A stretch of DNA of 64,000 nt from Candidatus Harrisonbacteria bacterium (GCA_016214655.1 JACROC010000005.1:67078-131077); one strand, 5' to 3'. Positions 4,628 through 62,787 are shown, counted from the stretch's first letter. Notes: a model not told the origin generated them from the letters alone. Translations and numbers: made by a program.

Positions 4628-5233
4628 TTAACTTTCGGAACCAGCCAGAGCTTTCTTCCGGAGACGCTGGAAAATTTCTGCCTGCTCACGCGCGTCATCT
4701 AACGCATTGTGGGTATGCGGAAGCTTGGAAAGAAACTCTTTATCCATTGCTTTTTTAGCAGTTTCCCACCAAAACCGTTTCCGCATTAACCCGGCATAAT
4801 ATGCTTTGATATCCCATCCGGAAATTCCAAACGGATTATGTCCCAAGAAGTGGATAAAATACCAATGGATAAACATCCAGTCATAAGTTGCATTAAAAGC
4901 GATAAATACCGGGCGTCTGTCTGATCCGCAGACTTCTTTCAGCCATTGGTCAAATTCTTTCATGGCAACCGCGGGATCTGCTCCGGATATTTTCAATTTT
5001 TCCCGATCAAGGCCGGATATGCTCGCGGCTCTCTCAAAGTACTTTTCTGAAATTGGCTTTAATTCCCGATAGAAGCCATTTTCCGGAGAACGGATAACGC
5101 AAGCGCCAAAGGATGATATTGAGTAATCGCCGGGAATTGGGCCGTCGGCCTCAACATCAATTGATATAAATAATTCTTTCAAGGTTCTGCCTCCTTTCCA
5201 GATTTTTATCATCTGGATATTATAGGGTATCAA
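4628..5233 (-). CDS. DEDD-type 3'-5' exonuclease (DnaQ-like)
   Basis: SIDVEADGP (exo I) and HNALDDAREQA (exo III, DEDDh) motifs. Confidence 0.65.
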   Translation of the reverse strand: MIPYNIQMIKIWKGGRTLKELFISIDVEADGPIPGDYSISSFGACVIRSPENGFYRELKPISEKYFERAASISGLDREKLKISGADPAVAMKEFDQWLKEVCGSDRRPVFIAFNATYDWMFIHWYFIHFLGHNPFGISGWDIKAYYAGLMRKRFWWETAKKAMDKEFLSKLPHTHNALDDAREQAEIFQRLRKKALAGSES

Positions 5234-5507
5234 AAAATAAGTTGGATGTCAATTTACTGAGCTTAGTACTGAAAAGAGCTAACTTCTCTCCCCTCTTCCA
5301 TCGTTTTATTTCACTCTCTCTTCTGCGGGCTTCTTTTAGTGTCGCAAATGATTCTGAATATTTCAGTTTTACCGGCCGGCGGATTTTTGTGTAATGAGCT
5401 CCTGATTTTGAAGTATTATGCTGCTTTAAGCGCTTTTCTAAGTCTTTAGTGCAACCTACATACAAAGATTTGTCGGCGCATTCTAGTATGTAGGTGAAGT
5501 AAGGCAT
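5220..5507 (-). CDS. GIY-YIG nuclease family protein (UPF0213)
   Basis: YFTYILECADKSLYVGCT...LEKRLKQHN is a canonical GIY-YIG N-terminus. Overlaps the exonuclease gene start, so they form an operon. Confidence 0.75.
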   Translation of the reverse strand: MPYFTYILECADKSLYVGCTKDLEKRLKQHNTSKSGAHYTKIRRPVKLKYSESFATLKEARRRESEIKRWKRGEKLALFSTKLSKLTSNLFFDTL

Positions 5508-6242: not shown

Positions 6243-6332
6243 TGGCGGAGGGTACAGGATTCGAACCTGTGATCCCCTTTCGGAGAAACTTGCTTTCCAA
6301 GCAAGCGCACTAGACCGCTGTGCGAACCCTCC
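6243..6332 (-). tRNA. tRNA-Ser (anticodon GGA)
   Basis: Reverse complement folds as a cloverleaf. Acceptor GGAGGGU/ACCCUCC. D stem GCAC/GUGC. Anticodon stem CUUGC/GCAAG with loop UUGGAAA. Long variable arm. T arm ACAGG-UUCGAAU-CCUGU. Encoded CCA. Confidence 0.85.
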
Positions 6333-9678: not shown

Positions 9679-10469
9679 ACGGCAATCGGCGCCTTAATGC
9701 CGGGATACGGGTTATATCCAACCAACTCAAAGTCTTCTAATCGATAATCAAAAATTGAGTCAACTTTCCGTTTAATTAGCATCTCCGGAAGCGATCTGGG
9801 TTCTCGGCTAAGCTGGAGATCAGCCTGTTTAAAATGATTTAGATAAATATGCGCATCGCCTAAGACGTGGATAAATTCTCCGGGCTGTAATCCGGTCACC
9901 TCGGCAACCATCATGGTTAACAAAGCATAAGACGCAATATTAAACGGGACGCCGAGAAACATATCGCAGCTCCGCTGATAAAGCAGGCAGGAAAGTTTTC
10001 CGTTAGCAACATAAAATTGGAAAAGACAATGACAGGGCGGCAATTTCATTTTTTCAATATCCGCAACATTCCAAGCGCTTACGATTAATCGGCGGTCGTC
10101 TGGCTTCTGCTTGATACGTTCAATAACAGCAGAAACTTGATCAATATGCCTTCCGTCCGGTGCCGGCCAGGAACGCCACTGGTGTCCATAGACCGGACCC
10201 AGATTACCGTCTTTATCCCCCCACTCATCCCAGATTGTAACCCCATGTTCATGCAGAAATTTTAAGTTGGTATCTCCGCGAAGAAACCATAAAAGTTCAA
10301 CGATAATACTTTTAAGGTGCAATTTCTTGGTAGTCACAATAGGAAATCCTTGAGAGAGATTAAAACGCATTTGCCGGCCGAAAACGCTGATAGTGCCTAC
10401 GCCGGTACGATCGCTTTTTTGAGTGCCGTTTTGCCGGATATCGCGAAGCACATCAAGATATTGCTTCAC
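9675..10469 (-). CDS. thyA: thymidylate synthase (likely GTG start)
   Basis: [11 protein letters not shown] active-site region. A GTG start gives [11 protein letters not shown], a 264-aa protein like canonical ThyA. The track ATG at 10541 lies inside the terminator hairpin and is rejected. Confidence 0.85.
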
Positions 10470-39182: not shown

Positions 39183-39446
39183 CTACAACTTCGATTGGTA
39201 ATAGATTTTAAGCCGTTTAGCTAAAAACCTGCGACCTCTCGTAGTTTTTAAATATTCTTCGCGCCTTTCCGCGTCTTGTTGATTGACGCAAGCTTCAAAA
39301 TAAATAAGTTTCATAGGTAATCGTGGTTTAGTAGAAAATGATTTACCTTGATTATGTTCTTCTATCCTGCGCTTCAAATTATTGGTGTAACCGACATACC
39401 TTTGCTTATCATATAAACTTTCTAATACGCAAACGTAGAAGAACAT
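39183..39446 (-). CDS. GIY-YIG nuclease family protein (UPF0213)
   Basis: MFFYVCVLESLYDKQRYVGYTNNLKRRIEEHN. Start moved to the internal Met matching the family N-terminus. Lies immediately upstream of lexA, probably as an operon. Confidence 0.7.
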   Translation of the reverse strand: MFFYVCVLESLYDKQRYVGYTNNLKRRIEEHNQGKSFSTKPRLPMKLIYFEACVNQQDAERREEYLKTTRGRRFLAKRLKIYYQSKL

Positions 39447-39604
39447 AATCGAAGTTGTAGCACCGGGCATATTCTTATTATAGCATATTAGTTATGTAAA
39501 AGTACAACCCAGTTGACAGAGTTGACAAGATTTTAAAGAATATAAGGGTGTTGTTGGGATAAAAACTTATAAAACTCCCGCGGAAGGGAAATTTATTATT
39601 CTAA

Positions 39605-41263: not shown

Positions 41264-41566
41264 CTAAACTAAAGAAATTTTCAATTTCCCCTTGAGTGAA
41301 TTAGCGATTTTATTTAGTTTATCCGCTGTAACGTTCTGCTCTCCGCTTTCAATTCTAGCAATCTCGCTCTGAGTGGTTTGCATTTTTTTAGCTAATTCTT
41401 TTTGAGTTAAACCCCTTTTCTTTCTTGCGGAATAAATTTCGTAGCCAAGCGCAAGTCTGTGAAACCTCTCATCGGCTTTCGCCCGAGCTTTTTTAGTTGG
41501 ATATTGCTCTTTTAAAATATCTTCAAAAGAGCGGAATTTAATTTTTGTATTTTGGTTTTTTGTCAT
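41264..41566 (-). CDS. XRE-family helix-turn-helix transcriptional regulator
   Basis: RKKRGLTQKELAKKMQTTQSEIARIESGEQNVTADKLNKIANSL is a canonical Cro/C1-type HTH. Confidence 0.75.
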   Translation of the reverse strand: MTKNQNTKIKFRSFEDILKEQYPTKKARAKADERFHRLALGYEIYSARKKRGLTQKELAKKMQTTQSEIARIESGEQNVTADKLNKIANSLKGKLKISLV

Positions 41567-41680
41567 TATTTTATTTAAATAAAAATAGCATATATGCTAT
41601 ATTTGTCAATGGTGGTTTGTGAATAACTACCCCACTACACCGCGGTGTAGTGACGTGGTAAGTAAAATTAAAGTAAAAAT

Positions 41681-42073
41681 TTATAATTTTACTTCTTTGA
41701 TTTCAATCTGCGATCTACCTTTTCCTTCCTCTTTTGGCTTTTGAAAATTTATAAGTAAACCAATTTTTATTTTGAGAATTCTCATATAATTTTTGATTTG
41801 TTGCTCCTCAGACGCCCCAAGCTCACTACCAACCGCTTTCAACTCCAGAACTACCCTATCCTTCCCGAAACTTACAATTATATCCGGATATCCTTCGCCG
41901 ACATAATGATCTTTGTATTTAAGCTCAACTACTTTTTGATTTTCATATCTGATTTTCGCCAACCTTAAACCAACCTGCATGGCTTTATCATATACATCTT
42001 CCGAAAAACCGGAGCCTAAGGAGCGGTAAACATCCCTGGCGATTTTTTTGATTTTATTCAATTTGTTTTGCAT
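41681..42073 (-). CDS. GxxExxY protein (PD-(D/E)XK nuclease-like)
   Basis: GEGYPDIIV...LELKAV matches the GxxExxY signature. Start taken at MQNKLNKI, 4 nt after the upstream stop. Confidence 0.65.
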   Translation of the reverse strand: MQNKLNKIKKIARDVYRSLGSGFSEDVYDKAMQVGLRLAKIRYENQKVVELKYKDHYVGEGYPDIIVSFGKDRVVLELKAVGSELGASEEQQIKNYMRILKIKIGLLINFQKPKEEGKGRSQIEIKEVKL

Positions 42074-42077
42074 AAGT

Positions 42078-42929
42078 TTATTTTCTCTTATTTTCATCTA
42101 AAGTCTTCCCATTTTTATCTTCCCACTGAGTCCATCCATTTACAGATCTTCCCATGATAACATCTCCAGCAGCGCTCGGACTTCTAAAAATGTGGTCCTT
42201 TGTAAAAATAAAAGATTTGTCATTTTCTTTTTTTAAAACACCGTCATTCTGAAGTTTTTGACGAAGATTTCGGCTGCTCATAGGAAGTCCTCTCCTCTCA
42301 GCTATGCGAACCAATGAACCTTTATAAACCACAAATTCTCCATTCTCAAGTAATAAGCCAGAGCCCCTTGCATCTTTATTTTTTTTATCCTCACAAAAAT
42401 ATTTTTCTTCTGTATCTTTTTTAAGATCGTGAATATCTTGAAATAAAGTAAATCCTAAAAAATTTAAAATAAATTGAATTTTACTAAAAAGTTCATCATT
42501 AACAATCCTTTTGTGTTCTGAAAGCCTGGCTTCTTCTGGTTCTGGTTTTGTTTTATTTTCAATATCATAACGATCTACATGCTTTGCTAATTTTATAGAC
42601 TTACTTTCAAGATATTTTATATCGGCGCTATCTAAATTTTTATTAGTAATTATAACCCCAGTCTCCCAAAATTCTTTTTCTGCGTCATGATTACTAAGTC
42701 TTTGATAAAATTTTTCTGATTGTCCAATATAAACAATCTGTCTTGAAGGATCTTCTCCGGCGCCAAAAAGGAAATAAACTCCTGCCTGATTAACTTCTGA
42801 TCGCTTTCCAAGATCTTTTAATTTATTCCGCGGAACCACAAATACCTCACTATTAAAATTAGCGAGATCAATTATTTTAATTCCGTTTGGATTATCATCA
42901 GGAAGTAATATTGTTATAACTTGCGCCAT
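42078..42929 (-). CDS. GIY-YIG nuclease domain protein with C-terminal DUF4357-like domain
   Basis: N-terminal GVYFLFGAGEDPSRQIVYIGQSE...RLSNHD GIY-YIG core. C-terminal region resembles the DUF4357 domain found on such nucleases. Confidence 0.6.
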   Translation of the reverse strand: MAQVITILLPDDNPNGIKIIDLANFNSEVFVVPRNKLKDLGKRSEVNQAGVYFLFGAGEDPSRQIVYIGQSEKFYQRLSNHDAEKEFWETGVIITNKNLDSADIKYLESKSIKLAKHVDRYDIENKTKPEPEEARLSEHKRIVNDELFSKIQFILNFLGFTLFQDIHDLKKDTEEKYFCEDKKNKDARGSGLLLENGEFVVYKGSLVRIAERRGLPMSSRNLRQKLQNDGVLKKENDKSFIFTKDHIFRSPSAAGDVIMGRSVNGWTQWEDKNGKTLDENKRK

Positions 42930-43318
42930 ATATTTATTTTATCACAAAACAGCGCCACAAGGCGCTGTTTTAATTTTTTGACTCCCGCGGAAGGGAATTT
43001 TTATTTAACTTCTTAATAAACAACCTGCTTAAGCAGACACCCTCGCAAAAAGAAATAAAGTAATTACTTACCTTTAATCTAATGATCCCAAACCCTTATC
43101 GCTATAAGAAAAACCTTAACCGAGAAGAATGCCACAAGATGCATCGCGTAAAACCATATTTCATCAAACATCTGTATTCCCCATATCTTATATGAAATCC
43201 AGAATACCAAAGAATGAAAAACTAAATAAGTTAAACTCCCAATGAATCGATTAGAGTTTGGAGATAAACCATTTGAAGATCTATAATGATGCTGGAATTT
43301 TATCATTTACATACTATC

Positions 43319-43678
43319 TTATTTAATTAAACTGGCTTCAAGTAATTTACCCGTAACAGAATTTATTCTTTCGTAAATCACAAAAACTTTACTTTTAGCC
43401 ATTCCAATATTTTCTATCTTTTTATCAAAATGAACGATATCGTTTCTGTATTCTTGTATGAAATTTCGCAAATAAGTAATATCAATTTTTATACTCTCCC
43501 CTAGTTTCTTTTCAAAAATTGGTGCTAAAAAATTTCCATTGCCACAAGCAGGCTCAAGAAAGCGAGATTCGATTCTCTCTGTCTCATTTTTAACCAAATC
43601 TAACATTGCATCCACCTCTCGTTCCCGGGTGAATACTTCGCCATGATCCTTAACTCTTTGTTTAGACTTTATTTGCAT
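43319..43678 (-). pseudogene. N-terminal fragment of an N6-adenine DNA methyltransferase (Eco57I-like), truncated
   Basis: VFTREREVDAMLDLV...LEPACGNGNFL holds motif X and motif I only. No NPPY motif IV. Followed by an unrelated small ORF, so the gene is decayed. Confidence 0.5.
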
Positions 43679-43924
43679 AATATTTTATTTAAAAAATCTC
43701 GCTGTCGGCACGCCGAGGGCTTTAGTGATTCTTTTGACGGTATAAAAAGTCGAGTTCGGTGTTGCCCTAGCTTCAATTTTAGCGTCAATAAATACATCTT
43801 AAAGTGCTTATAAAATTTTTGTTCCTTGGGTATAATTTATACATAAATTATACATCAAATTAATTCTTAATAAGAATCAACAAAAGTTAATAACAGGGTT
43901 CACCTAGCTAGGCGAATCTTGAAA

Positions 43925-44104
43925 AAACTAAACCTATCTGTCGTACGGCAACTACGGAAGCGCCAAAAGCTAGGAACCGCAGCCCCGACGATATGTCGGG
44001 GCTTTTTGCGATAGCAAAACCAGGTTTTTGGCGCTGAGACGTAGGAGCCGTCCCGCGCTGGACGGGACGGACTCCGGTGCCGGTAGACAAATAGGTTTAG
44101 TTTT
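43925..44104 (+). ncRNA. GC-rich structured RNA, paralog A of an unassigned family
   Basis: 5' AACTAAACCTATCTG pairs with 3' CAAATAGGTTTAGTT. Conserved cores GTCGTACGGCAACTACGGA and CCGGTGCCGGTAG are shared with paralog B. Internal hairpins GCGCCAAAAG..TTTTGGCGC and CCGTCCC..GGACGGG. The track ORF 43908..44090 is spurious. Confidence 0.45.
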
Positions 44105-44162
44105 AAAGAGGTTTAAAAATCAAAAAGAGGCCTTATGGCCTCAAATTATCTTAGCTCGGCTA

Positions 44163-44459
44163 TTAAGCCGTCTTAAATTCAGGATATAACTGCACATCAT
44201 TTTCTAGATTCCGGATTCTCTTTATTAAACTCTTGTGCACGTATATTTCTGGAGTTCTAGGCGCGGGAGACTTAAATAAAAATATATCATTGCTTATGCT
44301 GCAGTTAATCCAGACTTCAAAATCTGGGCGGAGCACAATCAGATTATTTTTTAAATCCCAGCTATCCAGGTCCCCAAGGTCAAATACCGCTCCCCCGGGA
44401 GATACGCCGTGCGGAGTCATGTGCAACTGCTCGGTAAATACAACCTCCAACATGTCCAA
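44163..44459 (-). CDS. hypothetical protein
   Basis: 98 aa, downstream of fic. A hairpin plus T-run terminator follows on the minus strand (44115-44140). Confidence 0.4.
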   Translation of the reverse strand: MDMLEVVFTEQLHMTPHGVSPGGAVFDLGDLDSWDLKNNLIVLRPDFEVWINCSISNDIFLFKSPAPRTPEIYVHKSLIKRIRNLENDVQLYPEFKTA

Positions 44460-44538
44460 TCCCTTTATAAAAAGTTCTGAAAAGAGTATATCAATAAGTT
44501 TTTACAAGGTCAAAGATGAGATACTATATTGCCGTCAA

Positions 44539-45420
44539 CTAAATACCGATTTTCCAAATATTCTTTTCTAAAAAAGCCTCAATGGTCTGCCGACTGGCCT
44601 TATTGATAAGATTTGAATGAGAGAGTTTATTATTCTTCGCGTATTCGGTTAAGGTAATAATTTTTTTACCCTCTAAATATGCCAACCGTTTATAATAACT
44701 ATTCGTAAGCGCCCTGCCTACTATCTCCTCCATAATGGCAGTTTTGCCTTTTTCATCAAATTCTTTAAACGCTTCGTAATATTTAACCCTATCAATAAAT
44801 TTTATATTTATCGGAACAAAACCTTCCCGGATCAATAAATAGTTATTTATAACTCTTCCAATGCGGCCATTGCCATCAATAAACGGATGGGTATGCTCAA
44901 ATGTAAGATGCAATAACGCAATGCGTTTTATAATATTTTCATGGCTGCTTGCGTTATATTCTGCAAGCATTTTTTCTAATCGTTCTATTATTTCTTTTGG
45001 CGCCGGAGCGATGTGGCTACCGACACGAACACGCTCGTCACCTTTTCTAAATCTTCCGGCTATATCGTCACGGATGTTAGAAATAAGCATTTTGTGAAGT
45101 GACAACATGACGTCCAACGTCAATTCTTGTTCTTTAGCTCTTTTATCTATGTACGACACCACTCGCGCAAGATTTTTTGCTTCAAAAATCTCGCGTTCAC
45201 TGATAAATCGGTCCAAGTCAATCTGGAGAAGTATCTTTTCCGTCTCCTCAAGCGTGAGAGTACTATTCTCAATGGCGTTTGAGTTATATACCTGTTCAGC
45301 GACCTCAGCCTCAGAGACAAGTTTAATAAGCGCATTTTTACCAACAGATGCTTTGTAGTATCTCTCGCGAAGAGAATGTATCTTATTAAATACGCCAGAT
45401 ATTTTTGTCATATATAACAA
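44539..45420 (-). CDS. fic: Fic/DOC family protein (AMPylase-type motif)
   Basis: HPFIDGNGRIGR matches the HPFx(D/E)GNGRxxR Fic motif. Confidence 0.8.
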   Translation of the reverse strand: MLYMTKISGVFNKIHSLRERYYKASVGKNALIKLVSEAEVAEQVYNSNAIENSTLTLEETEKILLQIDLDRFISEREIFEAKNLARVVSYIDKRAKEQELTLDVMLSLHKMLISNIRDDIAGRFRKGDERVRVGSHIAPAPKEIIERLEKMLAEYNASSHENIIKRIALLHLTFEHTHPFIDGNGRIGRVINNYLLIREGFVPINIKFIDRVKYYEAFKEFDEKGKTAIMEEIVGRALTNSYYKRLAYLEGKKIITLTEYAKNNKLSHSNLINKASRQTIEAFLEKNIWKIGI

Positions 45421-58770: not shown

Positions 58771-60423
58771 ATGAATAAAAAAGATATATTATTTTATATT
58801 TTAGTAACCGCGGCACTTCTCCGGTTGGTTAATCTTTCAGTCGGCGATACGATAAGCGATGAGGTATTCATGTCGTTCCGGGGCATCGGAATGATTGATT
58901 TTGACGAAGCCGCACAGCAAATCACGCCATGGGAATGGCAGGATCCGGATATTAAGTGGTGGGCTAAATTATCTTTCCATGACCATCCCCTGCTGGTTCC
59001 ATATATACAGCACATTTCTATGGCTATGTTCGGCGAAAATAATTTTGCCTTCCGGCTGCCATCGGCAATCTTAGGGACGGCCTCGGTATATCTTTTATAT
59101 CTCATCGGCACACTTCTTTATTCTGAAAATGCTAGCCTACTATCCGCCGCATTCCTAGGATTAACTCTCAACCACGTATATATCAGCCGGACTGGCATGC
59201 AAGAGGCATATGTCATATTCTTTATACTGCTAGGATTTTATATTTTCTTAAAATCATTGCGTAATGAAAAATATTTACCTTGGGTTGGCGCGGTCATAGG
59301 GCTGGCGGCGGAAACAAAATATACTTCACTGATTTTAGTGCCGATTTTTCTAACTTATCTCCTAATATTTAAACGGAATTATTTCAAAAATAAATATTTA
59401 TGGTATGGGATTCTGCTTTTCTTTTTGATTTTCAGCCCAACAATTATTTATAACACAATGCTTTACCGGGAAACTGGACATTTTGATTTTCAATTTTCCC
59501 ATATCTTCGGACAGCGGCCGGAAGTCTGGAAAGTAGCTCCCGGAAAAGAAATCGGGACGCTGGGAGACAGAATCCGAAATTTCATCCCGCGGATGATTGC
59601 CAGTAATTCTTGGTTATTCCTATCAACAACTGCGTTTTCACTTATCGCTTTTCTCTGGTTATTATTTAAAAATCCGCGGGAAACCTTAAACAAAAATTCC
59701 TTTTTGCTTATTGTTTTTTCCTTTTTGCTGTTACTGCTATTACTGATCGGTCCGTCATACAGATTCCTGACCATGCTAACGCCATTTTTAACTTTAGCAA
59801 TCGGTCTAATGCTGATAAAAATTTGGGACTTGCATTATTTCGGAAATAAATTCGCATTATTAATAATTGCTTTGATTTTTCTTTTTGAAATCTTCTATTC
59901 AATCAATAATCAAATCCTCGCCTACCCCATAGGACCAGAACCATGGCTCGCTTCAAAAGTCCGTTACGAAAATTATAACTGGGGCTATAATGAGCTGGGT
60001 GAATTCCTGGAAAAAGAATTAAGCGGGAAAATGCCGGCGCTTTCGTTCGATCTCCAATACAAATTTTTGGAAGACCTGCGGGATCAAGCTTTAGAAAAAG
60101 GACAACGGGGTGGCCTGGAACCCTACCCGGCATTATTTGTTTACAGCGGAAATTTTGATATGGCCGCCAAACTTTGGATACTGGACCGCCTCCAGATTTA
60201 TCACGCCTGGCCAATTATCAGTTTAAAAACCTATTATGACTACTTGCAAGAGCGCGGTTTTGATTATTATGATAGAGCCGGCTTTAAAAATTACTATTTT
60301 ATTTTACAGACAAATACGGTACCATCGGAAGCAGACCAGGCGCTGATGCGAGGCGTGCCTATCAGTATTTATAACAAGCGTGGCGAAGAGATATTCAAAA
60401 TTTATAAATATACTAACTTATAA
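58771..60423 (+). CDS. glycosyltransferase family 39/83-like membrane protein (ArnT/PMT-type)
   Basis: About 12 TM helices, an N-terminal DE-containing loop (ISDEVFMSFRG) and a large C-terminal periplasmic domain. Confidence 0.6.
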   Translation: MNKKDILFYILVTAALLRLVNLSVGDTISDEVFMSFRGIGMIDFDEAAQQITPWEWQDPDIKWWAKLSFHDHPLLVPYIQHISMAMFGENNFAFRLPSAILGTASVYLLYLIGTLLYSENASLLSAAFLGLTLNHVYISRTGMQEAYVIFFILLGFYIFLKSLRNEKYLPWVGAVIGLAAETKYTSLILVPIFLTYLLIFKRNYFKNKYLWYGILLFFLIFSPTIIYNTMLYRETGHFDFQFSHIFGQRPEVWKVAPGKEIGTLGDRIRNFIPRMIASNSWLFLSTTAFSLIAFLWLLFKNPRETLNKNSFLLIVFSFLLLLLLLIGPSYRFLTMLTPFLTLAIGLMLIKIWDLHYFGNKFALLIIALIFLFEIFYSINNQILAYPIGPEPWLASKVRYENYNWGYNELGEFLEKELSGKMPALSFDLQYKFLEDLRDQALEKGQRGGLEPYPALFVYSGNFDMAAKLWILDRLQIYHAWPIISLKTYYDYLQERGFDYYDRAGFKNYYFILQTNTVPSEADQALMRGVPISIYNKRGEEIFKIYKYTNL

Positions 60424-60447
60424 TAAATAACTGCTGGGTTCCATTGA

Positions 60448-60590
60448 GAGATCTGCCTGTCTGTCGTGCGGCAATTACGGAGCCCTGAAATGCTTGGATT
60501 TTTGCGAAGCAAAAAATTTCAGGGCGAGGCATAGGCGGCACCGACCGCAGGAGTCGGTGAACGCCGGTGCCGGTAGGCAGATAGGCTGAG
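60448..60590 (+). ncRNA. GC-rich structured RNA, paralog B, immediately 5' of tgt
   Basis: CCTGTCTGTCGTGCGGCAATTACGGAGCC ... CCGGTGCCGGTAGGCAGATAGG. Closing helix CCTGTCTG/CAGATAGG. Internal hairpins GCCCTGAAAT..ATTTCAGGGC and CACCGAC..GTCGGTG. Confidence 0.45.
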
Positions 60591-60609
60591 CTCTTATAGA
60601 ATAGCTAAA

Positions 60610-61758
60610 ATGATTAAATTTAAAATTCTAAAAAAATCCAATAAGAGCCGGGCGAGACTGGGGTTGCTGGAAACGCCGCATGGAGTAGTGGAAACACCGT
60701 CGCTGGTGCCGGTAGCAACACAGGCAGTAGTTAAAACACTGACAAGTGAAGAGGTTCTGCAAACTAAAACCCAGATTTTAATTTCCAATACTTTTCATCT
60801 CCATTTAAAACCGGGGGAGAAAATTGTAGAATCCGCCGGCGGGATCCATAAATTTATGAACTGGCTAAAATCGCTGATGACCGACTCCGGCGGTTTTCAG
60901 GTATTTAGCTTAGGATTCGGACACGACCTTCAAGTCGGAAAAGTTTTAAAATATTTTCCAGGGCAAGAACGGAGGGAAATTCTGGATAAAAGCGCCCAAC
61001 CGAAACAAGTTAAAATCACCAATGATGGCGTACATTTCCGGTCACCCTTAGACGGCAAAGAATTATTTATTGGCCCCAAGGAATCCATGAAAATCCAGCA
61101 GGCGCTGGGAGCGGATATTATTTTTGCTTTTGACGAATGCACCTCTCCCCTTTCTACCTACGAATACGTGAAAGAATCTTTAAAAAAAACACATGCCTGG
61201 GCAAAAATTTGTACTAAAGAAGTAAAATCCGGCCAAGCTCTATTCGGTATTATTCAAGGATCAAGATTTAAAGATCTGCGGCACGAAAGCTCTACTCTTA
61301 TAAATTCGCTTGGTTTCCCCGGCTACGGCATCGGCGGAGACTTGGGGACCAGCAAAGAAGACATGAAAAAGATTTTGGAGTGGACCATTCCCTACCTCGA
61401 CGAAAATAAACCCCGACACCTGCTTGGCATCGGCTACCTGGAAGATATGGAAAATATTATAAAAAACGGCATTGATACCTTTGATTGCACCGTACCAACG
61501 CATTACGGCCGCCGAGGAATTGCTTTCACCAGCGAAGGGAAATTAGACCTGCGCAAGACAAAATTTCTAAAAGATAAAAGCCCGCTTGATAAAAAATGCA
61601 AATGCAAAGTTTGCCAAACTTACACGCGGCAGTATATTTGCCACCTTCTTAAGGCAAATGAAATAACCCCGCTTAGTTTATTAACCTTTCACAATATTTA
61701 TTTCTTCAACACTTTTGTAGAAAAGATTAGGGAGAAAATAAAACAAGGGAAGCTTTAG
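60610..61758 (+). CDS. tgt: queuine tRNA-ribosyltransferase
   Basis: Full-length TGT with catalytic Asp regions and a zinc site CKCKVCQTYTRQYICHL. Confidence 0.9.
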   Translation: MIKFKILKKSNKSRARLGLLETPHGVVETPSLVPVATQAVVKTLTSEEVLQTKTQILISNTFHLHLKPGEKIVESAGGIHKFMNWLKSLMTDSGGFQVFSLGFGHDLQVGKVLKYFPGQERREILDKSAQPKQVKITNDGVHFRSPLDGKELFIGPKESMKIQQALGADIIFAFDECTSPLSTYEYVKESLKKTHAWAKICTKEVKSGQALFGIIQGSRFKDLRHESSTLINSLGFPGYGIGGDLGTSKEDMKKILEWTIPYLDENKPRHLLGIGYLEDMENIIKNGIDTFDCTVPTHYGRRGIAFTSEGKLDLRKTKFLKDKSPLDKKCKCKVCQTYTRQYICHLLKANEITPLSLLTFHNIYFFNTFVEKIREKIKQGKL

Positions 61759-61818
61759 GTTGTCAAACTAAAAATTTTCTACTATAATCTCTGCAGCAAC
61801 TTAACTCCATATAAAGGG

Positions 61819-62787
61819 TTGAAAATGTTAAATAATAACCCCGTAAGAACAACGACTTTAAATGTCGTGGAAACTGCCAGGCAGGTTAAAATTAACCGCG
61901 AGGCAATTGAAAAGCTAGCCGCAGAATGGAATAAGACCGGCCTGCCTATCACTTGCTGGAACAGCAGAATGCATTTAGAAACAGATGACGAAACGAAAAT
62001 GCTGGATTATTTGATTATTTTAGACAGTTTAAATTTCTGCTTCTGGCATCCGAGAAAAGAACGCTGGAGCATCGTCTATAACCACGAAAAATATAGTGGA
62101 TACTTTGCCCTTTCGCTGGCTTTAAAAAATTACTTTGAAAGGCATCCCAGCAAAGCTAACCTAAGAAATTTCGCCGATATTTCATTTGAAGATTTTATTT
62201 ATCTGCTCCAAGGCGGAAATCATCTGCTCTTCCTGGATAAACGCTGGGAAATTATAAAAGCCGTAAGCCAATATCTGGTTAAGCGCGGAGGTTCCAAGGC
62301 ATTTATTCTTTCCGCCGATCAGAAATTATCCATCCTGATTCCTAAAATTGCAGAGTCTCTCTCTTCTTTCGATGACACGGCTGATTATAACGGAAAAAAA
62401 GTTTATATTTGGAAAAGAGCGCAAATTCTTGCCGTCGACATTTATGGCGCGCTATGCGGGCGCGGAGCAGGATATTTTACCGATCTAGATTACCCGACGG
62501 CTTTCGCTGATTATAAACTCCCGCAAATCCTGGTACACTACGGAATTCTGGAATATTCGCCTGAGCTTAAAAAGAAAATAGAAGATGGTGATCATATTCC
62601 GCCTGGATCCGCAGAAGAAGTGGAAATACGCAGCGCCACTGTCTGGGCGGTTGAATGGCTGAAAAACGAGCTAAAAAAATACGGCGGCCTATATGAATCG
62701 TTTCTGCTGGACTGGGTTCTTTGGGAACAATCACAGAAGGAAAAGATGCAGTTCCCCCATCACCGGACGCAAACAATTTTTTACTAA
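61819..62787 (+). CDS. DUF2419-like protein (putative queuosine-salvage Qng1 family)
   Basis: LDSLNFCFW segment and adjacency to tgt. Family recall from memory, so moderate confidence. Confidence 0.45.
   Translation: MKMLNNNPVRTTTLNVVETARQVKINREAIEKLAAEWNKTGLPITCWNSRMHLETDDETKMLDYLIILDSLNFCFWHPRKERWSIVYNHEKYSGYFALSLALKNYFERHPSKANLRNFADISFEDFIYLLQGGNHLLFLDKRWEIIKAVSQYLVKRGGSKAFILSADQKLSILIPKIAESLSSFDDTADYNGKKVYIWKRAQILAVDIYGALCGRGAGYFTDLDYPTAFADYKLPQILVHYGILEYSPELKKKIEDGDHIPPGSAEEVEIRSATVWAVEWLKNELKKYGGLYESFLLDWVLWEQSQKEKMQFPHHRTQTIFY

Follow-up and report, generated by a model that had tools for sequence, protein, structure and literature searches.

A dispersed, multi-copy family of structured non-coding elements in Candidatus Harrisonbacteria-like genomes

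Comparison of a 64,000-nt stretch of Candidatus Harrisonbacteria DNA (hereafter the window) with related genomes indicates that two of its loci, A and B, are copies of a dispersed, multi-copy family of structured non-coding elements of about 150-190 nt. About 60 distinct relatives came to light in exact-pattern scans and a covariance-model search, all of them from Ca. Harrisonbacteria-like groundwater genomes, and we consider a new structured-RNA dispersed-repeat family to be the best reading of these sequences. The original prediction had described A and B as a paralogous pair; they are indeed two related copies, but not a lone pair.

Copies A and B and their relatives

We scanned the window with the two 22-nt cores that A and B had been predicted to share, allowing up to three mismatches. 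The 5' core (TCTGTCGTRCGGCAAYTACGGA) matched exactly twice, in A and at 60460-60481 in B, as did the 3' core (CCGGTGCCGGTAGRCARATAGG), in A and at 60564-60585 in B, all four on the + strand and at the places predicted, with 0 matches per core expected from 100 shuffles. Both loci are as GC-rich as had been noted (0.54-0.56, compared with ~0.33 in the flanking DNA), and their ncRNA-like folding was confirmed against dinucleotide shuffles, with a minimum free energy (MFE) of -106.8 kcal/mol and z = -10.9 for A, and -77.9 kcal/mol and z = -6.4 for B. The covariance model scored A at 126.8 bits (E = 1.7e-30) and B at 160.4 bits (E = 2.6e-39). The two loci had thus been placed correctly but not delimited correctly, since the folds run past the coordinates first assigned, to the ends listed in Table 1.

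Table 1. Features of copies A and B and of their surroundings in the window
Feature	Position	Strand	Description
Copy A, whole unit (inferred ends)	43887-44119	+	5' leader TTAATAAC..GGGTTCA.., fold, short 3' trailer ..TTTAAAA
Copy A, folded core	43915-44113	+	outer helix, P1, bulged G, UA/UA, bulged G, P2, three-way junction with P3 and P4
A 5' core	43937-43958	+	inner P1 strand, bulged G43943, U-A step, P2 strand CGGCA 43946-43950, junction AC-UACG-GA
A-specific insertion in P3 arm	43979-44007	+	hairpin GCCCCGAC-GAUAU-GUCGGGGC then U5, terminator-like
A middle junction strand	44036-44045	+	GAGACGUAGG; family consensus GAGGCGUAG; near-invariant across 50 sequences
A 3' core	44074-44095	+	CC-GG junction, P2 strand UGCCG 44078-44082, bulged G44083, UA, inner P1 strand
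Copy B, as indel	60424-60609	+	186-nt block between PMT stop codon and tgt ATG
Copy B, folded core	60445-60596	+	from MFE, covariance model and pair table
B P1	60445-60465 with 60576-60596	+	
B P2	60469-60473 with 60568-60572	+	
B P3	60482-60491 with 60516-60525	+	
B P3a hairpin	60499-60515	+	
B P4	60534-60545 with 60553-60565	+	loop CGCAGGA 60546-60552
PMT/GT39-type glycosyltransferase	58771-60423	+	upstream gene of B
tgt (tRNA-guanine transglycosylase)	60610-61758	+	downstream of B; 100% identical to P0001, Ca. Harrisonbacteria
Fic-family protein	44539-45420	-	reading of translation
N6-methyltransferase N-terminus, truncated	43319-43678	-	reading of translation
GIY-YIG/DUF4357-like protein	42078-42929	-	reading of translation
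XRE-type HTH protein	41264-41566	-	reading of translation

We infer the termini of the A unit, which would consist of leader, fold and trailer; a leader motif AATAAC..GGGTTC and a trailer ..YTAAAA are common to A and B despite the unrelated loci in which the two copies lie, and the B unit runs from a leader TAAATAAC... through the fold to a trailer ...GCTAAAA. The interiors of the two copies had been called completely different, which proved mistaken. Both share a P3 stem with a GCUNGG bulge, a small hairpin UUUUUGC-GAA/GAUA-GCAAAA, the junction strand GAGRCRUAGG, and a P4 hairpin whose loop is the 7-nt CGCWGGA, and by alignment the interiors are homologous, the main difference being a 35-nt hairpin inserted in the P3 arm of A and missing from B and from nearly all other members. 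This insert, a GC-rich hairpin followed by U5, is a perfect terminator look-alike and gave a weak PsrR1-terminator-like match in a permissive Rfam scan. Because such an internal look-alike could truncate the sense transcript, if A is transcribed, A may be a disabled copy.

The surroundings of copy A (41264-45420) have the appearance of a decayed defence or mobile island, as judged by reading translations (Table 1), and two stand-alone 95-aa GIY-YIG-type nuclease-like ORFs lie elsewhere in the window on the minus strand (5220-5507 and 39183-39470). A hairpin at 44127-44142 (GAGGCCTTATGGCCTC), called as a terminator on both strands and carrying the minus-strand tail TTTTTGATTT, probably ends Fic-side transcription just before copy A.

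Searches of the two loci against Rfam 15 (4227 families, with riboswitches, self-cleaving ribozymes and HEARO among them) bore out the claim that they match no known RNA. At the gathering score the sole match in the window was a tRNA-Ser at 6246-6332, with none at A or B, and searching A and B at E<=10 returned chance partial matches alone. Twenty further member loci yielded no Rfam family overlapping any element. ARAGORN found nothing at the elements, and a linkage of the elements to tRNAs was sought and not found. A small ORF in the 3' core (GUG CCG GUA ... UAG) was rejected as unconserved in the GUCAGG subfamily. Short matches to the 5S rRNA loop E/helix III, 16S helix 18 and the sarcin-ricin loop, and to the SRP Alu domain, k-turn, CsrA GGA sites and Shine-Dalgarno-like GGAG motifs, are either not colinear or not conserved; the P4 loop, for example, is GCUAGA in some variants. 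Since Rfam supports none of these resemblances, we treat them as leads only.

To map the distribution of the family, a 19-nt core pattern was scanned over one genome per GTDB species and returned 16 loci. Nine of these carry the second core at the right distance and are true members, from four Patescibacteria MAGs (six in Ca. Harrisonbacteria JACPTS01, one in Harrisonbacteria MHJG01, and two in other relatives), while the remaining seven, in Streptomyces, Pseudomonas and the like, are without the second core and their number fits chance by a rough estimate. A looser junction pattern gave 49 metagenome loci, all from groundwater-type samples. Covariance model R1, built from 50 distinct sequences, re-found all pattern-found loci and turned up six further, divergent copies flanking known ones; applied to the window with filters off, it returned A and B and no third copy. 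Viral contigs, phage records and plasmid collections held no member. The copies have a GC content of 0.46-0.62 in a genome of about 35% GC, and at least nine were counted in the sampled parts of one MAG with a roughly 1-Mb genome; copies sharing a genome are old and divergent, not recent bursts. Judged by these searches, the family is specific to Ca. Harrisonbacteria-like Patescibacteria and previously undescribed.

Consensus fold, covariation and strand

The consensus fold takes the shape of a long closing rod topped by a three-way junction with two arms. From outside in, the rod consists of a 2-3-bp outer helix, a tandem G.A step (P0) and P1 of 14-16 bp, followed by a 2-bp step (UR/YA) set between two bulges, a G on the 5' strand below it and a G or U on the 3' strand above it, and finally by the 5-bp P2 (CGGCA/UGCCG). 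The tandem G.A step, recognised by visual inspection in the boxes RYGAGC and GCGAGC and outside the covariance test, is absent from A and different in B. Both helices of the original prediction are real: the pairing of the ends is the closing helix, with the exchange of A-U for G.U between the copies correctly described and one C.A mismatch in A passed over, and the nested CGGCA/UGCCG pairing is P2. At the top of the rod the junction reads AAC-UACG-GA, arm P3, GAGG-CGUA, arm P4 and GG, and its strands are near-invariant (AACUACGGA, GAGGCGUAG and C-GGU). Arm P3 carries a GMUNGG bulge and a small GAA-loop hairpin, and arm P4 ends in the 7-nt loop CGCWGGA.

RNAalifold applied to 50 distinct sequences gave 42 pairs, 33 of which show compensatory double changes. 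When the 2-bp step was added, 98.5% of 2200 cells were standard pairs and double changes were present at 34 of the 44 pairs. None of 500 column shuffles reached any of five measures, and sliding the partners by 1-3 columns left 34-44% paired. P2 covaries as well (UGGCA/UGCCA, GAGCA/UGCUC, GAGAA/UUCUC). Helices vary, but little variation is seen in the junction strands, in the GMUNGG bulge of P3 or in the CGCWGGA loop of P4. The only place where insertions occur is the apex of P3 (in A, L005+, L003b and L040). A mutual-information scan of the P3 bulge, P4 loop and junction detected extra local pairs only and no tertiary or pseudoknot covariation; long-range covariation would be undetectable here, because the candidate positions are almost invariant.

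The + strand had been proposed as the sense strand, and the asymmetry of G.U pairs agrees. The sense fold is more stable than its reverse complement in 51 of 53 copies (means of -80.6 and -69.5 kcal/mol), with 158 G.U pairs in the sense direction compared with 81 in the reverse complement, and two P1 positions are G.U in a third to half of the sequences, which on the other strand become C.A mismatches. The greater sense stability and the excess of G.U pairs therefore point to selection on a single-stranded form of the + strand, that form being RNA or, less likely, single-stranded DNA. Together, these alignments show a real fold maintained by compensatory change on one strand only. The original prediction of an undescribed, lineage-specific structured RNA family, which was to fall if related genomes lacked homologues or covariation, still stands because pattern scans and the covariance-model search that it proposed found homologues with very strong covariation in those genomes; the Rfam negatives support it as well.

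Gene ends, transcription and turnover

Copies of the element lie at gene ends, with the downstream neighbour convergent in 34 of 46 cases and co-directional in 12, and where the two flanking genes run in one direction, the element is antisense to them in 20 cases and sense in 7. In about 28 cases the stop codon of the neighbour lies 0-12 nt beyond the fold, and this stop codon is sometimes provided by the element's own terminal ..GAGCUA. Neighbours include the housekeeping genes secY, adk, map, gyrB, nusG, dnaE, metG and tgt (names taken from reading ORF translations, with database support for tgt and PMT only); no gene family accompanies the element, and the neighbours have no common function. 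This is not a regulatory context.

This placement bears on whether the element is a cis-acting transcript-end device, that is, a partly bidirectional terminator, insulator or 3'-end stabiliser selected locally. The short distance between fold and stop codon would suit such a device, as would an antisense fold that still reaches about -69 kcal/mol, the U-rich tract that follows the antisense fold in 15 of 57 copies, and the copies at loci L004, L049 and L014 that sit atop long stems followed by U-runs. We nonetheless hold it to be very unlikely, given that a plain hairpin would be enough for this task, that it is the sense fold with its invariant junction and loops and not the antisense fold that is preserved, that most copies lack a U-tract on either strand, and that canonical terminators already adjoin many copies. 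By the criterion of at least 6 U in 8 within 15 nt, a U-tract follows the fold in the sense direction in only 5 of 57 copies, and an intrinsic terminator (a G+C-rich stem plus U-tract) was rejected since U-tracts are too rare on either strand. Because the element often lies between a stop codon and a downstream hairpin, its antisense strand is probably transcribed as 3' UTR in many loci.

At least 12 copies are immediately preceded by a canonical hairpin-plus-U terminator and then an A/T-rich leader of about 20 nt, which in these copies contains a -10-like hexamer, a TAACAAC-like motif and an AAG directly before the fold. A strict sigma-70 scan found no promoter upstream of A or B, and the positions of TANNNT across copies were diffuse, with no sharply placed -10 element. 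Signals of transcription are weak, and independent transcription of the element, possibly from a promoter of its own, is plausible. The pattern of orientations and signals excludes a riboswitch-type leader and a plain terminator. Directly upstream of the leader of one copy, at L011 4585-4705 (minus strand), we observed a GC-rich segment of ~120 nt with a strong hairpin and U9 terminator at its end. It overlaps two short ORFs, of 39 and 44 aa, but none that reaches 90 aa, matches no Rfam family, and may be another small RNA.

Copy B sits between the PMT and tgt genes, with the tgt start about 13 nt past the fold, a position that raises the idea of a riboswitch-like aptamer controlling downstream tgt or metG, or controlling antisense read-through into a convergent gene. 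The distal loops and the invariant core of the three-way junction would be in keeping with an aptamer, and at L014 a copy stands upstream of metG and has a U-run following P1. Against it, a co-directional downstream gene is present in only 12 of 46 copies, the neighbours are functionally unrelated, conserved linkage to any gene class is largely ruled out, P1 exceeds 20 bp with no alternative-pairing expression platform seen, and B is absent upstream of tgt in four relatives. We therefore regard this explanation as highly improbable.

These relatives also inform the history of copy B. In L066, the closest relative found (Tgt 92% identical) and one of the four without the element, the same PMT-tgt-Q_salvage order is kept and the PMT stop and tgt start overlap as TAATG, exactly where the window has its 186-nt block. 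The window and L066 do not agree in the last three codons of PMT; outgroup PMTs end ...IYKF*, both ingroup sequences have different 3-residue extensions, and the indel is not polarised by this comparison. Because the codons overlap in the empty site, gain of B at PMT-tgt would be more parsimonious, with loss in the relative as the alternative. As separate observations at this locus, tgt is followed by Q_salvage (PF10343) in the window (60610-62787) and in L066, L068 and L069, by gene order a conserved queuosine-salvage pair in these reduced genomes, and the B 3' core and trailer (60574-60602) match a sigma-70-like promoter, TAGGCA-17-TAGAAT, reading into tgt with the ATG 8 nt downstream. This match could drive a near-leaderless tgt mRNA after insertion, or be due to chance.

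Comparison of orthologous loci provided further cases of turnover. In the map-GT2 spacer JACPTS01 carries an antisense element where another organism has a member of a different subfamily in the opposite orientation, and at three other sites one genome carries a copy that a relative lacks, one of these sites being empty in this window. A resident copy that is intact in L057 is reduced in L004/L064 to its 5' half followed by a long-stem variant, and L045 carries an additional standard copy nested atop the long-stem variant. The P3 or P4 helices differ between orthologous loci whose flanks are nearly identical, and since the swapped helices come from a limited, recurring set, modules appear to be exchanged between copies. 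The alignments thus document copies that have been gained or lost between close relatives, nested, truncated and placed in either orientation, with P3/P4 modules exchanged.

We looked for hallmarks of transposition around the copies. The best 10-mer flank repeat reached at least 9/10 in 10 of 55 copies, compared with 22% for mismatched flanks, which gives no evidence of target-site duplications. The only clear flanking duplication among the 55 copies is at L061 (about 9860-10075), where leader and element lie between 15-nt direct repeats (TTGACGGGGCTTTTT) that equal the 3' half of a terminator. Conserved terminal repeats were not found, the arms instead pairing, varying and covarying, with 4-5 pair types in each outer P1 column, and no transposase or reverse transcriptase was evident in the window or in the flanks of the other copies, covered as 8-14-kb genome slices. 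General insertion into the loop of a pre-existing hairpin was considered and rejected, as extra complementary flanks occur in 7 of 57 copies with ~3 expected; the extra outer stems are a subfamily trait (L004/L064, L045, L029/L052 and L020/L049).

Two further arrangements were observed in these slices. At L049 (3850-4150), L023 and L031, members of the CCGGAGAG subfamily form part of a larger composite, itself conserved, in which UUUUCAGACAU pairs with AUGUCUGAAAA as an outer stem, CCCCCACAUAAAUACUUAUGUGGGGG adds a hairpin, and CAUCGCCUCCA and GGAUCCCACCGCCAGCCCGA are the conserved flanks. The whole lies inside a locus-specific stem of 23-27 bp that is followed by a U-run in L049. At one locus shared by two genomes (L006 6038-6764 and L035 619-945) two copies occur together in divergent orientation, 15 nt apart in L035 and flanking a 100-aa ORF in L006.

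An explanation that dispenses with dedicated mobility is that the copies are stationary paralogous genes for trans-acting sRNAs, much like multi-copy regulatory sRNAs, spread by ordinary duplication, the losses being deletions of unstable hairpin DNA. The secY-adk copy keeps its place and direction in three genomes, paralogues that share a genome have diverged deeply, target-site duplications are missing, and the core is strongly conserved with a strand-specific fold, all of which fit such genes. It is harder to reconcile with them that one intergenic site holds different subfamilies in opposite orientations, that copies are nested and 5'-truncated, that the 186-nt block precisely separates a stop and a start codon which in the relative overlap, and that so many copies occur in the sampled parts of a single roughly 1-Mb genome; we judge stationary sRNA genes to be unlikely. 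What fits best is that, over evolutionary time, the family has behaved as a low-activity, non-autonomous mobile or duplicative repeat.

Known systems and biological meaning

We compared the element with known classes of small bacterial repeats. MITE-like repeats (ERIC, Correia, BOX/RUP/SPRITE, QMITE and Rickettsia palindromic elements) are non-coding, multi-copy and 100-200 nt long, lie in intergenic positions near gene ends, give transcripts that form very stable stem-loops, insert into one another, and can provide stop codons, terminators or sRNAs (PMC10969869). The Harrisonbacteria element is like them in being small and multi-copy, in its gene-end placement, in its stable folds and in its nesting. 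However, MITEs are AT-rich and have sequence-conserved terminal inverted repeats and target-site duplications, whereas the Harrisonbacteria element is GC-rich, its arms vary and covary, its internal junction is conserved, no duplications are detectable and no parent insertion sequence is known. REP/REPIN sequences are extragenic palindromes that lie for the most part 3' of coding regions, where the adjoining genes are unidirectional or convergent; they are probably transcribed, probably act at the RNA level, and are long-lived and vertically inherited at many sites. REPs themselves are simple hairpins of 20-40 bp that leave a GTAG or CGTC tag unpaired and number tens to hundreds of copies (PMC3733652). 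Intergenic gene-end placement, a stable fold and long-lived copies are common to REPs and the Harrisonbacteria element, but the latter is about 150 nt and branched, has an invariant junction and loops, and shows no end tag, and no RAYT gene was seen. The element lacks the defining features examined for both classes: it has no conserved terminal repeats, target duplications or AT-richness and is not a 20-40-bp tagged palindrome.

Its architecture instead resembles that of orphan structured ncRNA motifs, with which it shares a GC-rich island, covariation, an invariant junction, variable peripheral stems and a lineage-restricted range, and on these comparisons the family is real and novel. It differs from such motifs in being multi-copy per genome and in its gain and loss, nesting and module shuffling, which are normally not seen there.

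Integron attC sites conserve structure and not sequence, with extrahelical bases in a long stem and a variable branched top, and they lie directly behind the stop codon of a gene with the folded strand being the bottom strand of that gene. The Harrisonbacteria element shares the conserved structure, the extrahelical bases, the variable branched top, the position after stop codons and the bottom-strand fold; in contrast, its interior is highly conserved where that of attC is variable. When we examined it for attC features, the stem base read RYGAGC...GCGAGC with no core sites, and the copies stood solitary between housekeeping genes without arrays or integrase.

This likeness leads to the proposal that the element acts as DNA and not RNA, its one-strand fold serving as a single-stranded substrate for a recombinase or HUH/Y1 transposase, with IS200/IS605-derived palindromic elements, REP/RAYT and attC sites as models. 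Strand-specific pairing that tolerates G.T, the lack of target duplications, extrahelical bases at fixed places in the stem, immediate adjacency to gene ends, the folded strand being antisense to the gene, and the observed gain, loss and nesting are all compatible with such a substrate. Yet no RYYYAAC/GTTRRRY core sites, cassette arrays or integrase were found, nor a Y1 transposase in the window or flanks; the invariant junction and loops resemble those of a tertiary-folded RNA; and the orientation is mostly opposite to the lagging-strand targeting of co-oriented genes expected from IS608. The size and branched, conserved interior are also unlike IS200/605 ends or REPs, the latter being 20-40 bp (PMC3733652). 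We consider a DNA-level element decidedly unlikely.

Returning to a structured-RNA repeat, we put forward a working model to which we would give about an even chance, in which the leader and fold unit yields a small stable RNA whose junction and loops bind a partner, while copies persist behind stop codons and cap transcript ends. Under this model, transcription from the A/T-rich 5' leader would produce a small, nuclease-resistant sense RNA, and the conserved junction and two GG-rich loops would form a compact platform for a protein or other partner. The leader and fold would propagate as a non-autonomous duplicative or mobile unit, with copies surviving only where they are harmless, mostly directly behind stop codons, and there the element would probably also serve as a 3'-end structure for the neighbouring gene.

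A bolder and decidedly improbable version holds that the invariant three-way junction is an active site or binding pocket, making the element a new self-processing ribozyme or a partner-recruiting RNA that copies itself via a single-stranded intermediate. If copying were driven by the junction in this way, new sites would be positions behind stop codons, the tops of hairpins and other copies, and the ultra-small CPR genomes would harbour a new type of mobile element driven by RNA structure.

Candidate Phyla Radiation (CPR) bacteria have tiny genomes of about 1 Mb, and to our knowledge almost no non-coding RNAs have been characterised in them. Copies of the element alter gene ends, as in the last three PMT codons, and separate formerly overlapping genes, as at PMT-tgt, and annotation could mistake them for ORFs. 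The alignment and covariance model provide a probe for the distribution of the family, for its protein partner through phylogenetic profiling, and for its expression in groundwater metatranscriptomes. An element that is GC-rich, selectively maintained, kept in at least nine copies by one genome and subject to turnover between close relatives would be either a heavily used RNA tool or an uncatalogued genomic parasite of these bacteria.
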